NCBI GenBank assembly: GCA_040290035.1
Contig: PSMG01000005.1
Span: forward strand, 17,727-81,726
Length of the DNA: 64,000 bases
Source of the DNA: Chitinophagaceae bacterium
GTDB taxonomy: Bacteria; Bacteroidota; Bacteroidia; Chitinophagales; Chitinophagaceae
Direction: 5' to 3'
Shown here: positions 8,957-49,258 of the stretch, in pieces
Numbering within the stretch: the stretch's first letter is position 1
Layout of the letters: each line of letters opens with the position of its first letter
The notes under the pieces: generated by a model
What the model saw: the letters and a program-made list of their open reading frames with translations, nothing else
Database searches by the model: none
Told to the model about the DNA's origin: nothing
Program-made: the position numbers and the translations under genes

Positions 8957-10294
8957 CTATTTTATTTGATATACTGCATAGTCCCACGGCTGCATTTTAG
9001 TATTGTTCTGTATTGTTTCTGTTTCACTGCTAAATACATTTTTCCACATCCTAGCAGAAGGAGTCGTTAACCAGCTAAAATAAACTACCTGATTACTTAG
9101 GTTCAATACAACTAAAACTTTCTTCTTTCCATTCATTCGTTCGAACGCATAAATAGCTGCATCATTTGTGGTTTTCAACTTCTTGAAGGAAGCATTAGTC
9201 GCTAACGCACTATTATTTTTTCGGAGGTTAAGCAAGGTCTTATAAAAAGGTGCCCGTGCATATTTGTTGAAGATGATGGTGTCTTTATAAAAAAAACTGA
9301 TGCTATCTAAATAAGGCTCTTCTTGTCCACTATAAATTAATGGTACTGATGCTTTGATGGTTTGCGTTAGCACAGCAAAAGGTGCATGGCTTGCTCCCGG
9401 CATAGTGGCATAATCTGCTTTGTTCCAACTATTCTCATCATGGTTGGAGGTGAAGTACATGCGTAGCGCATTTTTTTTATAAGTGTTTTCCACCTTTGTC
9501 AAAACGCTGTCGATACCAAAGGCTGGACGTTCACCTTTTACAATTTGCTTCATCATATTAAATGCATCCCAAGTATAAGTAGCATCAAAACCCGCAGTAT
9601 GCATCCACGCTTCATTACTTTCTGCCAGCATAAAAATATTTTTCAGCTTGCGTAATTGCGGAATGCATTTGCTCCAAAAAGATGCAGGTACATCTGTGGC
9701 AACATCGCAACGAAAACCATCGATATTACTATTGGTGATCCAAAACTTCATTGAAGCAATCATACTATCTGCCAATTGTGTGTTGCTGTAATTGAGTTTT
9801 CTTGCATCAGTCCAATCAAAGGGCGAAAGCGGATTACCATTTTTGTCCTTTACATAAAAATCTGGATGCTTGCTTAGCCAGGGATGATCAGCACCTGTAT
9901 GATTAGGAACCCAATCAATAATCACTTTAAAACCCATCGCATGCGCTTTCTGCACTAACGATTTCCAGTCGCTCATTGTTCCGTATTCGGGATTGATAGC
10001 TGTGTAATTAGACACGGCATAATAACTACCCAACAGACCTTTTCTATCTTTTTTACTAATGGGATTAATAGGCATAAACCAAAGGGTTTGAACACCCATT
10101 TCTTTTAACCGTGGTAAATGCTTTTCAAATGCTTTGAATGTTCCTTCAGGAGTGTATTGTCGAACATTCACCTCATAAATATTGCCTTGCATGATCCAGG
10201 CAGGATGGCCATCAATTACAGCAGACTGAGCTGCGGCAGTTAGGTTTATAATAATTGATAAAAAAATAAACAGCGTGATTTTAGTGTGGCCCAT
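8957..10294 (-). CDS. Secreted GH13 alpha-amylase family glycosidase
   Basis: Signal peptide; DWVPNH, GFRCDVA (nucleophile Asp), LAES (acid/base Glu), SNHDE. Confidence 0.9.
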   Translation of the reverse strand: MGHTKITLFIFLSIIINLTAAAQSAVIDGHPAWIMQGNIYEVNVRQYTPEGTFKAFEKHLPRLKEMGVQTLWFMPINPISKKDRKGLLGSYYAVSNYTAINPEYGTMSDWKSLVQKAHAMGFKVIIDWVPNHTGADHPWLSKHPDFYVKDKNGNPLSPFDWTDARKLNYSNTQLADSMIASMKFWITNSNIDGFRCDVATDVPASFWSKCIPQLRKLKNIFMLAESNEAWMHTAGFDATYTWDAFNMMKQIVKGERPAFGIDSVLTKVENTYKKNALRMYFTSNHDENSWNKADYATMPGASHAPFAVLTQTIKASVPLIYSGQEEPYLDSISFFYKDTIIFNKYARAPFYKTLLNLRKNNSALATNASFKKLKTTNDAAIYAFERMNGKKKVLVVLNLSNQVVYFSWLTTPSARMWKNVFSSETETIQNNTKMQPWDYAVYQIK

Positions 10295-10443: not shown

Positions 10444-11019
10444 ATGCTTCTATTGGCTGCAGGATTATTGGCTGCTTGTATGAGCGTGAGTACGTACGCA
10501 CAGCAAAAAGAAACAAAAATTAATGAACGTTATTTTATTGATGTACACGATGTGCAACCTGGCAAAGTAAACTTTGAGCAAGTATTAGCTGCTCACCAAA
10601 AAGGATTTACAAATGCAAGATGAGGATAAAGGAAAGATTTATTGCCTCTCTACAGCCCCAAACGGAGAAAGCGGAGAAAACGTAAATAATACACATAAAA
10701 ATGCGCACGGGCTAACTTATACGAGCATTTCGGAAGTAACACCTGGGGCTGAAGATGCTTCAAAGGAAGGAAAGCAATTTTATTTGTACATTCATGAACT
10801 GGGAAAATTACAGCTGCGGCAGTTGCAGACGCCCATAAAAAAAGATTTGGCTATTCAAGGTAGCAACAGCGTCAACTTTATTAATTATTAAGTAGATGAA
10901 AAGAATGGATTGGTGTACTGCTTATCGCAAAGTCCAAGTGCAGAAGCAGTTATCAAAACCACAAAGAAGCCCATGGTCTTATTCCACAAAAAGTATATAA
11001 GGTAAAGCAAGGTCAGTAA
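10444..11019 (+). pseudogene. Tandem DUF4242 (SCO4226-like) secreted protein, broken
   Basis: Pieces read MLLLAAGLL...YFIDVHD...AAHQK / KGKIYCLSTAP...THKNAHGL / AVADAHKKDLAIQ...FINY*VDEKNGLVYCLS...EAHGLIP. There are frameshifts, an apparent internal deletion, and an in-frame TAA at 10889-10891 where Trp is expected. Confidence 0.7.
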
Positions 11020-45864: not shown

Positions 45865-45906
45865 GGATATTTAAACTTTTTTGATGCGGTAGTTTGCGGA
45901 GAGTGG

Positions 45907-45972
45907 TAGTTGGCAGATGATAGTTGGTAGATGACTGACTGGTGTCTCCCTAGTGCCAACCTGCTGTCATCC
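45907..45972. repeat. 14-bp tandem TAGTTGG[C/T]AGATGA x2 with a partial inverted arm
   Basis: Copies at 45907-45920 and 45921-45934; TGCCAAC...GTCATC downstream. Confidence 0.5.
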
Positions 45973-46226
45973 TTTTGTGAAACTGCTGGCATAGTGGGGT
46001 GAACTTAAGTATAAGTATAGTATAAGGGGTTGGTTAGTCCCTTAGATGATTTGGATATTTAGCTTTGTTCATAAAGCCATCCAAGTGCAACAAAAAAGTG
46101 AACAAGTTAGCTTTGATTTTCAATAGATACCGTACTTTAGATGTAACGATTTGTTCATATATTTATGTGTTGGTGGCAATGCTATTTTGGACACACCCGA
46201 ATAATTCAAAGAGCTATTTTTGACAA

Positions 46227-46985
46227 ATGATAAAAGATTTTCCAGGCGAACAATGGAAGACAGTTCGGTTCGATTTTGAATTTACTAATGACTTTCGTCT
46301 TGAAGTTTCCAATTTTGGACGACTTCGGACTTTTAATAAAGTTTCCAATGGCAACCTTATTAAAGGCTCGATGATTAACGGATACCGTATTGTTCGACTG
46401 AAGTTGTATAAGCCGAGAGATGAAAAAGTGCAAGCAAAACTTGACAACCTAAAGCAACAAGTTTTTAAATTGGCAAGGAAACTGAAGTCGCAACAAATTA
46501 ATGGTGAAAACAAGGAAATCATTCACGAAACAACTGCATTGCTGCACATATTTAAAAAGAAGGTGAGTAAAAAGTTTCAGCAAGACCTCAAAGAACGGAC
46601 AATAAATTATCATTCGCTAATTCACCGCCTCGTGGCTGACTATTTTCTTCCAAAACCAAAACCTAACCAAACCATTGTTGCGCATCTTGATTATGACAAA
46701 CTAAATAACAGAGCTGCTAACCTAAAGTGGATGACACCTGAAGAGAATTATGAGCATCAAAAAAGAAGTCCATATGTAATTAAGGACAAGCAACAACGAC
46801 AATTAAGACAACAGTCCAATCCTAACAGAGCAAAGCTGACCGTGACGAGAGTAATGCTATTAAAAAAATTACTTAATGAAGGCAAACCAATGAAACAACT
46901 CGTAAAGGTGTTCAAAGTGACAGATACGCAAATACTTAGAATAAAACGTGGTGAAAACTGGGCAAACGTACCAGCAAAAAGATAG
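46227..46985 (+). CDS. NUMOD4/HNH endonuclease-like protein with a coiled-coil insertion and C-terminal HTH
   Basis: EQWK..EVSNFGRLR (NUMOD4), IHRLVADYF, AHLDYDKLNNRAANLKWMTPEENYEH (HNH), QILRIKRGENW. Confidence 0.85.
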   Translation: MIKDFPGEQWKTVRFDFEFTNDFRLEVSNFGRLRTFNKVSNGNLIKGSMINGYRIVRLKLYKPRDEKVQAKLDNLKQQVFKLARKLKSQQINGENKEIIHETTALLHIFKKKVSKKFQQDLKERTINYHSLIHRLVADYFLPKPKPNQTIVAHLDYDKLNNRAANLKWMTPEENYEHQKRSPYVIKDKQQRQLRQQSNPNRAKLTVTRVMLLKKLLNEGKPMKQLVKVFKVTDTQILRIKRGENWANVPAKR

Positions 46986-47003
46986 AGACAGAAGTGATGC
47001 ACA

Positions 47004-47205
47004 TGCCACCAACAAGGGCTTTAGCGTTATTGGGGCAGCACGTTGGCAGTTTCGGCTGTAACTCGCTATCAGCTTCGGTTACGGCTTGACGTTATTAATT
47101 TAGCTTTAGTTCTCACCTTCAACTTTTAAATCATTTTTCGGCTTCAGTTGTGGGCTGATGTTTTTCAAATCCCCAACAACGCCAAGTCCTGTTCCGTTGG
47201 TGGCA
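47004..47205 (+). other. attC-like recombination site (~200 bp)
   Basis: R'' ..CCAAC (ends 47013) and R' GTTGGTG (47196-47202); inner arms match at 17 positions with one extra base and mismatches; ~135-nt variable loop. Confidence 0.65.
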
Positions 47206-47219
47206 ATGCTATTTCAGGG

Positions 47220-49258
47220 CTAGACGCTTGCGGTAATGGTAAAATTGGCATTAGAAATATCAAAGAAGATATTACCAACTGCTTCCACTTTAATGCGTGC
47301 CGTGGTAGTAGCTGTATTTGGAATGGTTACTACCTCAGTACCATCGTTTGGTGTACTGGCAGCCAATACCGTTGGGAAGGTTTGTCCACCATCGGTAGAT
47401 AAAGAGATCTTTACATTGGCACAACTGATGGGTGCTGCTGTAGTACCGTTCACACTCCAGGTAATGGTTTGCGCAGAACCGCCAGCCCAGGTAACAGCTG
47501 TATTAGGCGCTGTGACTGCGAAAGGATCAGCTGTATCATTCACCGTTACTACCATGTCGGTATATTGTGTTTGACCTACACTAACAGGAGCGGTTGAACG
47601 ATAAACTGCATTGTCCCGAACAGTTAATCTAAAGTTTAACGTACGGGCTACAGAACTTAATGCTTCAATGTTGGCACCCGCATCGCCACCTGTTAGCGGA
47701 CCGGTAACCGTACCCCGGCCAGAATGGTTGACAATTGCGGAAAATACCTTGTAGGCGATGTAGTAGGTCTGAATGAAATCCAGTTAGGACCAGATGCTTT
47801 AGTAGGGCTTGCTACGCTACTAGCCCCTGTTTGAGAAGAGGAAGCGCTGTTGTTTTGCTCCCAGCAATAAGTTAGTACATCACCTGCGTTAGCGTCGGTA
47901 GCAGAACCAGTTAGTGCAAAAGGTGTGCTCTTTGGAATAGTATAATTGCTAACAGATGCTACAACCGGTGTGGCATTGGTTGATGAAATGCCTGTTGTAA
48001 CGGCGCACGTTTTAGTAGCCAAATTAGACTGTATCTGTGCAATGGATGCAGCGTGATAAAAGTCAAATGAGTGATTGGATAAATCCTGACTAGTGATACC
48101 TGCATAACCCATGATGGTAATACCAGAAACGGGTTCCACATTGACACCTGTACCTTCATTATTCATGGAGAAGGTGTGGTTAGCGCCTAACTGATGGCCT
48201 ACTTCGTGTACCACATAATCAATATCAAAATTGTCGTCTTGTGGAATACCATCGGCAGGAGAAGTGAAGCCACTACCTTTTGAGCCATTGGTACAAATAC
48301 AACCGATACAGCCAGCATTACCACCACCACCACCAGATGCACCAAACAGGTGACCGATGTCGTAATTGGCCTCACCAATTACATTGGTCAAGGTAGTTTG
48401 CAACTGGTTGTTCCAGGTACCGCCTGCGCCGGTAGAGGCGGGATCATACGGATCAGTAGAAGGATTATAATAAAAAACAGATGTTGTGTTTGCAATAAGG
48501 TTTAAATGCAAGGCCACGTCCTTTTCATACACACCGTTACAACGGGTAAGCGTGTTATTTACTGCTGCCAGTACAAAGTTTACCTGCGACGAACTGGTAG
48601 CTCCAAAGTAATTGGAATATTCTGCAGTAACGGATTGGGCTAGACGAAGTGTTTTTAAATCACCTGTTGAACGTGCAGCCATATTACCTACAGCATTATT
48701 CAAACCAGAAATAGCTCCCGCTTCGGGAGTACTGCATGTCCAGGGAATAGCACCACAATTACGTTGCGAACGATAAACAGCATATACAGTATGTTCGGCT
48801 GAATAAGGCTCGATAAATTCGTTGTCCTTTTCCGTACGAAAGACTATGGTTTGAATACCACGAGGTGATATACTCAATTTTACCGTTGCCGATCTATCGG
48901 TAATTCCCTTGCCGGAGTAAGCTCTTATCTCTGGGAAACGTTCCTGCAAGGCAGGCTTGAAGTTGGAAGCTTCGTACACTTCAAATTTTTCCAAAACGCC
49001 ATCCGCATTTGGTAATGAGATAACAGTAGACGTTTGTGCCGGTCGTTGGCAAACAATCCTGAATACTTCTCTTTGAAAAGAAGCAAAGTTTAGATTGAAT
49101 ACCCTTAGATCTGTAGGAAAGGTCAGCCGTGTTGTTGCCCTATCGGCCACAATACTGCTGCGTGCTGCATTGTTAACAGACCAGAAACGATCTGATTGTG
49201 AAAAAGCGTAAAGAGTGCATGTTACCAATAACGCAGTGACGAATAGAAGTCTATTCGT
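47220..49258 (-). pseudogene. Reprolysin-like (M12B) secreted zinc metalloprotease, broken
   Basis: HEVGHQLGANH and TIMGYAG Met-turn are intact. The expected start reads ACG (49256-58: acg-NRLLFVTALL..), there is a frameshift at C4 47713-47716, and the gene stops at 47220 with no T9SS C-terminal domain. Confidence 0.85.

Follow-up and report, generated by a model that had tools for sequence, protein, structure and literature searches.

A repeat-flanked endonuclease gene and its fold-back

The locus described here lies in a 64-kb stretch of contig PSMG01000005.1 from a Chitinophagaceae bacterium (the window, numbered from its first letter) and is built around a gene at 46227–46985 (+) that encodes a predicted endonuclease of 252 amino acids (aa). 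Its product matched HNH_3 (PF13392, 8e-10) and NUMOD4 (PF07463, 1.4e-5) in Pfam, both above cut-offs, with an additional weak C-terminal helix-turn-helix, a domain make-up that would class it as an endonuclease of the HNH homing type. The gene is bracketed by the 19-mer GTTGGTGGCAATGCTATTT, of which the window contains exactly two copies (46169–46187 and 47196–47214), against a shuffled-sequence expectation of 0.05 matches even when up to 3 mismatches are allowed. We consider it probable that the segment between these repeats, 46170–47196, is one gene cassette of an integron-like, site-specific capture system that is found in Chitinophagaceae and some other Bacteroidota.

The 10-mer TGCCACCAAC (47004–47013), 18 nt past the stop codon of the endonuclease gene, is the complement of the first 10 nt of both 19-mers, and two inner arms (47015–47035 and 47171–47190) pair with each other. 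Treated as single-stranded DNA, 46995–47215 folded into one long fold-back, with an energy of −33.3 kcal/mol (z = −3.75) for the bottom strand and −32.2 kcal/mol (z = −2.86) for the top strand. A preliminary description made from the sequence alone had reported the 19-mer pair, the inverse core, the pairing arms and the HNH gene, all of which were recovered at the same coordinates, and its expectation of a stable bottom-strand hairpin was borne out by the folding. Rfam at gathering thresholds and a tRNA scan gave no matches in the window.

Related sites occur in same-strand arrays

Only one full site of this type was found in the window with nhmmer, and it was 80–87% identical over ~190 nt to sites in several other genera. 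An nhmmer profile initially built from four sites detected more copies directly 3' of small open reading frames (ORFs), all on one strand. Scanning one genome per species with a degenerate loop pattern then yielded 95 stretches, most of them from metagenome-assembled genomes of Chitinophagaceae (Ilyomonas, Ferruginibacter, Flavisolibacter, Sediminibacterium and Segetibacter), with some in Saprospiraceae, Cytophagales, Flavobacterium and Ignavibacteria and one in the isolate Fibrella aquatilis. On these stretches nhmmer identified as many as 10 sites in 8 kb, without exception on a single strand; site density reached 12 per 10 kb in same-strand arrays, and several separate loci were present in a single genome. 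Sites were 140–240 nt long, mostly ~200 nt, with short versions of 120–156 nt that had one loop unit or none. The further copies of the fold-back that the preliminary description had suggested seeking in Chitinophagaceae number in the hundreds and stand in cassette arrays.

The 164 gaps between sites had a median length of 689 nt. Their longest ORF was on the same strand as the sites in 129 cases and on the opposite strand in 12, while the remaining 23 had no ORF of at least 50 aa; a cassette usually carried a single gene, and ten sampled cargo proteins mostly had no Pfam match. Some inter-site units of ~145–155 nt carried no ORF (L023 1634–1781, 1979–2124 and 6480–6625; L090 5065–5220 and 6191–6347; loci and contigs are given by L numbers throughout) and recurred in similar form within one array. 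These could be non-coding cassettes or parts of composite sites.

The 5' part of the site consensus reads ..C-tGC-nnn-YAAC, A(A), a 19-nt arm and GGCTGACG (box A); the loop continues with one or two units TCAACTTTT..TTAGCTTCRGTT..GGCTKGACG (boxes B and C) and then TTTCAAAT; and the 3' part consists of a second 19-nt arm, a spacer of 5–7 nt (ctgaaC) and GTTRnnnGCMAT. The conserved loop bears 2–3 GCTGACG boxes. In the window, where every element of the site is on the forward strand, the R'' box (gcacaTGCCACCAAC) spans 46999–47013, and the inner stem is formed by the left arm L'' (47015–47035) and the right arm L' (47171–47190), as placed by folding, pairing and covariation. The loop between them (47036–47170), delimited by site alignment and the nhmmer profile, holds box A (GGCAGCACG, ~47034–47042, overlapping the end of the L'' arm), box B (GGCTTGACG, 47083–47091) and box C (GGGCTGATG, 47152–47160), as well as two TCAACTTTT/TTAGCTTCRGTT units and TTTTTCAAAT. 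An unpaired 3' spacer, GTTCC (47191–47195), corresponds to the ctgaaC of the family and precedes the crossover.

Stem covariation and strand bias

Among 179 sites there were 102 distinct left arms, each pairing with its own partner, and arm duplex energies were −17.6 ± 4.0 kcal/mol for cognate vs −10.5 ± 3.3 kcal/mol for non-cognate arms. Covariation was counted in 70 distinct sites with the loop spliced out, relative to 500 shuffles and to slid controls. Paired cells amounted to 85.7% vs 60.2% in shuffles (0/500) and 35–48% in slid controls, the stem covariation score was 0.595 vs 0.163, and changes on both sides were seen in 15 of the 19 stem pairs. Thus the stems covary, which argues that the sites are under structural selection.

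One stem position was A.C on the top strand, equivalent to G.T on the bottom strand, in 85% of 154 arm pairs and in 67 of the 70 sites, and the more stable strand was the bottom one in 128 sites and the top one in 46. Because this conserved top-strand A.C becomes a bottom-strand G.T, the folded bottom strand is suggested as the substrate, as in integrons; such a single-strand step is uncertain, since the recombinase associated with the arrays (see below) lacks the IntI element that reads folded attC, and a double-strand mechanism, or help from an accessory protein, is possible. Overall, traits of the attC type were present in the layout, the cores, the covarying stem, the irregular positions and the bottom-strand bias, while the length and the loop conservation were atypical. 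We use the term attC-like for the layout of the site and make no claim of attC status beyond it.

Cognate boxes delimit the cassette

R'' and R' boxes were compared in 108 consecutive site pairs in arrays. R'' complemented the box following the previous site (GTTRnnnGCMAT), where its own cassette begins: measured against the reverse complement, identity was 0.79–0.88 at the four variable positions beside AAC/GTT, 0.64–0.84 at positions −10 and −9, and 0.63–0.74 at −15 to −12, whereas identity relative to the box directly 3' of the same site was 0.3–0.5, the non-cognate background. Position −11 was a conserved non-pair, with R' A (97%) facing C (73%), i.e. A.C on the top and G.T on the bottom strand. 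This cognate pattern implies that the unit kept together is TTRnnnGCMAT.. – gene – R''..L''..loop..L'..G, and would place the exchange point at or near G|TT, with the invariant GTT leaving the exact phosphodiester bond ambiguous. Integron cassettes follow the same cognate rule over 7 bp (59-base-element literature), a rule that is extended here to ~15 bp. Between 12 and 21% of the 108 site pairs were non-cognate, and a minority of cassettes can have their box exchanged.

Parsed in this way, the left 19-mer of the window (46169–46187, +) would comprise the crossover G and then the R' box at the 5' end of the cassette (GTTGGTGGCAATGC..), as indicated by its fit to GTTRnnnGCMAT, its complementarity to R'' at 47004–47013 and the start of homology with L007–L009. 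The right 19-mer (47196–47214, +) would consist of the crossover G and the opening 18 nt of another cassette carrying the same R' box, since array boxes that lie 3' of a site are part of the cassette that follows. Comparison with other loci thereby gave a complete cassette of 1027 nt (46170–47196, +), comprising the 5' R' box, the HNH gene and the recombination site up to the crossover G, which is the parse of the preliminary description, i.e. one complete cassette bounded at G|TT followed by 18 nt of a second.

The same HNH gene is an ordinary array member in L007–L009. The blastn alignment of the window with this copy covered 46169–47038, from the G of the left 19-mer through the left stem arm, and the L007–L009 copy comes with a fold-back of its own, whose arms differ from those of the window but complement each other; the gene after this fold-back begins ~30 nt past GTTG. 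L008, which encodes an identical HNH protein, has two extra cassettes (256 and 439 aa) before the next gene relative to L007 and L009. Each of the two extra genes has its own fold-back, and the breakpoints are at the right end of the site.

The inverted repeats that flank each gene, the 5' box and R'', might also be read as the 15-bp terminal inverted repeats of small transposons, moved by an unseen transposase and carrying L''-loop-L' as static spacers. No transposase was associated with the arrays, however, and the insertion sequence (IS) elements found there are secondary insertions. Moreover, the difference between L008 and L007 removes units together with their sites, and the site stems covary and are hence under structural selection, so that we regard the transposon explanation as extremely unlikely.

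A tyrosine recombinase at the array edge

A tyrosine recombinase gene stood at the array edge, on the same strand as the array, in 10 of 10 informative loci. A motif screen found such genes in L037, L046, L052, L055 and L091, in each case at the upstream edge and 750–1250 nt before the first site, with no other tyrosine recombinase in the loci of this initial screen. Two more loci, L122 and L123, came from a metagenome scan with generic Xer motifs, in which most of the 80 loci had unrelated recombinases and only these two were informative. Three homologues (55–58% identity) from complete genomes, L199, L200 and L202, were chosen independently as a test of the association between recombinase and array; 7–12 sites were present in the next 10 kb and none upstream. 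The family comprises 7672 proteins at E ≤ 1e-30 among 8000 candidates scored, with a length of ~390–410 aa, Phage_integrase and SAM-like domains, and no database names other than 'site-specific integrase' or 'XerD'.

This association bears on whether the 200-nt element could instead be a repeat like a repetitive extragenic palindrome (REP), a miniature inverted-repeat transposable element (MITE) or a terminator, with arrays arising by intergenic spread and genes gained or lost by homologous recombination. The loop is as highly conserved as in repeat families (80–87% across genera), a terminator-like hairpin with a T-run is located in box C, and some inter-site units have no ORF. Independent repeats would not, however, be expected to produce cognate boxes before and after a gene across 0.3–3 kb, nor the strict one-strand polarity of sites with genes, the recombinase at the edge of all ten arrays, or a strain difference between L007 and L008 with breakpoints at the right end of the site. 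We therefore judge a repeat family to be decidedly unlikely.

When scored with TIGR02249, the integron integrase profile, the four full-length recombinases reached 164–186 bits and the L091 fragment 138 bits, relative to a cut-off of 265, and the match consisted of two stretches that skipped profile positions ~180–240. Scores for NCBIfam XerA, XerC and XerD were similar to the integron-integrase score. The best solved relative was the archaeal XerA/XerC-like protein 4a8e, which aligned continuously, whereas the alignment with VchIntIA (2a3v) broke where the query has 15 residues and IntI has 57. This break lies in the region of the IntI-specific insert, and thus the recombinase is not an integron integrase. 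This insert, with its I2 helix (PMC7790495), is described as essential for integron function (PMC8138268). The recombinases have an extra ~100-aa N-terminal region, conserved among family members, for which Pfam gave no firm match (only a weak one to DUF5710, in the homologue P0311). Residues 1 to ~105 of the L046, L037, L052 and L055 proteins share the pattern ..H....I...FE.......K.....FS.T..W..P... It is pure conjecture that this extension binds the GCTGACG boxes of the loops.

These scores also bear on whether the window holds a canonical integron cassette with an unusually long attC, the true IntI being encoded elsewhere and the adjacent Xer-like gene being incidental. Much of the architecture would suit such a cassette, including the R''/L''/L'/R' boxes, the AAC/GTT cores, the bottom-strand bias and promoterless same-strand cassettes with mostly unknown cargo, and integrons have been reported in Bacteroidota, although the reviews list it merely as a phylum with integrons (PMC8618304, PMC9668308). 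IntegronFinder surveys are, however, nearly empty for Bacteroidetes, with only In0 elements and later one complete integron, in Salinibacter ruber (PMC9024848). Given also the sub-threshold, two-piece TIGR02249 alignments, the 15 residues in place of 57 and the absence of a second tyrosine recombinase from the loci of the motif screen, we consider a canonical integron very unlikely. The preliminary description had compared the layout with that of attC sites used by integron tyrosine recombinases; the layout was upheld, but the array recombinase is without the IntI-specific insert and is not an integron integrase. The system appears like an integron in every architectural respect tested; because its recombinase fails the defining integrase test, we place it outside the integrons sensu stricto and describe it as integron-like with an Xer-like recombinase.

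In each locus a GTTRnnnGCMAT-type box was found 103–264 nt past the recombinase stop codon. Read by eye, 13–15 of ~15 positions in this junction box were cognate to the first site's R'', so that the first cassette begins at the junction. In most loci the bases before GTT were TAnnTTTG/A (L052 TATATTTGA|GTT; L037 and L202 TATTTTTGA|GTT; L091 TATATTTACGT|GTT). TAnnTTTG is what we take to be the Bacteroidota −7 promoter box, and it may be a platform promoter pointing into the array. The platform layout is that of integrons, with an attI-like junction and promoter-like box and the array downstream, and the recombinase is co-directional with the array. A dif-like core of ~28 bp with two inverted arms was not seen at the junctions by inspection, with no dedicated search made, and the conserved right end consists of the spacer and GTTRnnnGCMAT with no inverted partner beside it.

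A putative platform relic and a truncated protease gene flank the cassette

No recombinase domain was found by Pfam in 16 ORFs located between 38.5 and 57.9 kb in the window, and a motif screen of all window ORFs gave no recombinase. Left of the cassette, 46030–46062 (+) encodes LVSPLDDLDI*, which resembles the C-termini of array recombinases (L091 IVSPLDDL.. and L052 IISPLDGLDL*) and is read as the last 10 codons of a relic recombinase. In-frame stops lie directly upstream of 46030, with no further recombinase similarity upstream, and the relic stop codon is 106 nt before the G|TT junction vs 103–170 nt in six other loci. The intervening 46063–46168 (+) forms a putative attI-like region with promoter-like boxes, namely TTTA at −33 (46136–46139) and TATATTTA at −7 (46158–46165), and a sigma-70-like match spans 46136–46163; TGT (46166–46168) makes up the 3 nt between the −7 box and the crossover G at 46169. 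The junction in the window, ttcATATATTTatgt|GTTGGTGGCAAT, resembles those 3' of recombinase genes in L052, L091, L037, L122 and L202, and other assemblies of the same species have the same left side. The cassette would then not sit at a random place, as the left flank looks like a platform relic made up of a recombinase 3' end and an attI-like junction. A second fold-back site at 45945–46190 was considered and rejected, as this segment showed no fold (z = −0.85) and no match to the site profile; it is better read as the attI-like region.

In a soil metagenome (run X1), 45998–46182, i.e. the stump and the attI-like region including 45998–46125, had ~4x the flank depth. About half of this depth led on into the HNH cassette; the other half went, after GTTGGTGGCAATGC, into a different sequence (AGCAAAATCTTCTTATG..), and the paralogues seemed to extend leftwards with divergence. 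The resulting branch at 46182/83 was rejected as a cassette boundary, since array statistics place the boundary at G|TT; it arises because a paralogue has the first 14 nt of the box in common. A tandem-like motif (CGGTAGTTTGCGGA / TGGTAGTTGGCAGA / TGATAGTTGGTAGA) occurs at 45887–45931, in the non-coding stretch left of the relic.

On the right, 20 nt of unclear origin (47215–47234) form an irregular junction with a 3'-truncated metalloprotease gene, as judged by protease comparison with L118. The protease stop codon is at 47220–47222 on the minus strand, and the window reads ..NFTITASV* where the L118 homologue continues beyond ..NFTI into further domains. The nearest flank homologue outside the species was 74% identical and not syntenic.

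The HNH gene in other contexts

The cargo protein had 1137 homologues at E ≤ 0.001. Most of the 120 homologues listed were 252 aa long, and all of these were 71–100% identical and from Chitinophagaceae, with genomic contexts that were completely different from genome to genome. A DNA search of phage and plasmid collections gave no match. In run X1 the cassette had a depth of 38.8 vs 20 in its flanks (~2x), which we counted in favour of the cassette reading as a sign that the window cassette was recently copied.

Many HNH homologues are solitary and without a site. These, together with the domains, would suit a free-standing gene of a homing endonuclease whose own cutting, followed by repair, brought it to this place, the 19-nt repeat being microhomology and the fold-back unrelated intergenic DNA: NUMOD4 and HNH_3 are domains of phage-type homing endonucleases, and close homologues stand alone among housekeeping genes in varied places, several of them lacking a nearby site (L014, L015, L019 and, at the gene itself, L010). 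Homing does not, however, account for between-context homology that has its precise start at the G|TT box and continues into the site, for a 5' box cognate to R'' as in 108 other cassettes with unrelated cargo, or for the same gene as an ordinary array member in L007–L009, and it explains neither the fold-back family nor the platform relic. We regard homing as unlikely and retain the cassette reading.

In L016, another HNH copy that stands alone among housekeeping genes is followed by a decayed full site and preceded by a half-site, with a 55-nt imperfect direct repeat (9888–9942 and 10899–10953, spacing 1011 nt); the arm of the upstream half-site is complementary to the left arm of the HNH site. 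In SRR6519253 and run X1, another cassette copy has, in the site loop right after 47061, an inserted IS-like element (L003 967–1138), whose end reads TGTAAATGTCTCGTCCTGAAATAGG and whose ORF resembles a helix-turn-helix transposase. Because of this insertion, five of six HNH-bearing contigs (L002–L006) break at 47038–47061.

Proposed movement of the cassette and comparison with known systems

In the mechanism we propose, the recombinase would cut at or near G|TT in the two sites flanking a cassette to release a circle, in which the 5' box and R'' would rebuild a ~15-bp stem beside the 19-bp stem. For the window, the 1027-nt circle would have the junction ..CCTGTTCCG|TTGGTGGCAATGC.., and the cassette-free junction would read ..TATTTATGTG|TTGGTGGCAATGCTATTTCAGGG. 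The circle would be reinserted at the attI-like junction, where the platform promoter would read into the cassette. The window copy would be stranded, with only the last 10 codons of the recombinase and the attI-like junction left on one side and, on the other, 18 nt of the next cassette, most simply a second copy of the same one, fused irregularly (a deletion junction) to the truncated protease gene. Further movement would depend on a recombinase supplied in trans and encoded at another place in the genome. The preliminary description had envisaged a cassette system of Bacteroidota that is little described and acts in trans, and this is supported by the start of HNH-unit homology at 46169, the array family, the cognate boxes and the covarying stem.

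Compared to integrons (sedentary chromosomal ones such as the Vibrio superintegron with its conserved Vibrio cholerae repeat (VCR) attC), the system is alike in having a tyrosine recombinase gene at the array edge, an attI-like insertion point after it with a promoter reading into the array, and head-to-tail, mostly promoterless same-strand cassettes of ~0.5–1 kb with mostly unknown cargo. Also shared are two-tier imperfect inverted repeats (R and L boxes) with AAC...GTT cores and a crossover at or near G|TT, cassettes whose first bases complement their own inverse core, the bottom-strand folding bias, conservation of site sequence within a lineage, and site-targeting IS110-family elements that resemble IS1111-attC. 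In contrast to integrons, the recombinase here has no I2 helix insert, scores below the cut-off, carries the extra ~100-aa N-terminal region and is transcribed in the cassette direction. Whereas attC sites are ~57–141 nt long, the sites here are mostly ~200 nt with a conserved loop containing 2–3 GCTGACG boxes; in the circular form the R stem would measure ~15 bp vs 7, strand asymmetry comes from conserved A.C/G.T positions, and there are several arrays per genome.

Xer recombinases, archaeal XerA and the pdif modules of Acinetobacter plasmids, which are small gene modules bounded by recombinase sites, resemble the system in that 4a8e is the best solved relative and XerA, XerC and XerD scores are comparable to the integron-integrase score. 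They differ from it in its 200-nt fold-backs, long polar arrays, dedicated adjacent recombinase and integron-type boxes, and no dif-like 28-bp site with paired arms was seen on inspection. Clusters of attC sites lacking integrases (CALINs) and solo cassettes at secondary sites are matched by a window cassette with a site and no nearby recombinase, but the window cassette is at a truncated platform and not at a random secondary site. Free-standing phage HNH homing endonucleases (NUMOD4/HNH_3) share the domains of the cargo protein, which here is packaged as a cassette and had no DNA match in the phage and plasmid collections searched.

Both the recombinase and the sites set the system apart from all integrons in the searchable literature, in which we found no description of cassette arrays or such recombinases in Chitinophagaceae and in which further IntegronFinder work dealt with other taxa only, although coverage is incomplete and an earlier description is possible. 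On balance we lean towards the view that Chitinophagaceae, along with some other Bacteroidota, carry an integron of a second kind, a chromosomal system that captures and shuffles genes, with an Xer-like recombinase that has a new N-terminal domain and no I2 insert, and with 200-nt sites composed of an attC-like folded core and repeated GCTGACG boxes, maybe arm-type binding sites. Integrons are the textbook case of modular gene capture and are defined by one recombinase clade with an insert that reads folded DNA. If our reading is true, integron-type cassette capture either had more than one origin or predates and extends beyond the IntI clade, and it becomes a question how a folded or structured site is recognised with no I2 helix. 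Soil and freshwater Bacteroidota would also contain a large, so far unsearched reservoir of mobile genes, which standard integron finders, built on IntI-specific signatures, would probably miss, and there would be a second system for testing how cassette capture evolved from Xer-like enzymes. The window copy is only a stranded relic, yet it is the thread leading to the whole system.

Several observations weigh against the cassette reading. The right box is identical over 18 nt to the box of its own cassette, which is unusual in the family and requires an extra event, e.g. a tandem copy followed by deletion. Many HNH homologues stand alone with no site, and the recombinase is without the I2 insert that in integrons reads folded single-stranded attC. 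Sites within one genome are interrelated, so the array counts are not independent. The relic recombinase matches over only 8–10 residues (tblastn E 7–17 on its own) and was given weight because of its position, right distance and order, and the stop-laden stump stretch appears from metagenome depth to be ~4-copy in the genome. No excised circle, empty site or joint was seen in the assembled contigs of one metagenome run, no polymorphism between strains was observed for the window cassette, and no empty site was found in relatives, where protease homologues were either from the same species (the contig ending before the cassette) or distant. Finally, the 5' boxes of one cupin cassette differ between L007 (6995–7005, GTTGGGCGTAATT) and L008 (6732–6745, GTTGTAGGCAAGC) with the rest identical, and only the L008 box is cognate to its R''.

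Additional observations

IS110-family (DEDD) elements were found inside sites in L199 (17690–18975), L202 (17395–18680) and L007 (~440–1790). Those of L199 and L202, from two genomes, were inserted at the identical point (..YAACATG|) in identical orientation, and the L007 element was a different one, located inside the left arm.

The 10-mer TGCCACCAAC or its complement occurred 7 times in the window vs 0.22 expected. Four extra copies (18382, 27439, 35806 and 55038) had unrelated flanks and looked like coding sequence; a repeat family was rejected, as the contexts were unrelated with no common flanks, and these copies probably reflect codon or peptide bias.

The reprolysin-like metalloprotease gene to the right of the cassette (47220–49228, minus strand) is split into two ORFs in different frames (47693–49228 and 47220–47555), and the same split was present in an independent assembly (L117). 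The window protease is without the FN3 and Por_Secre_tail end that is typical of most homologues, and the gene is probably a pseudogene.

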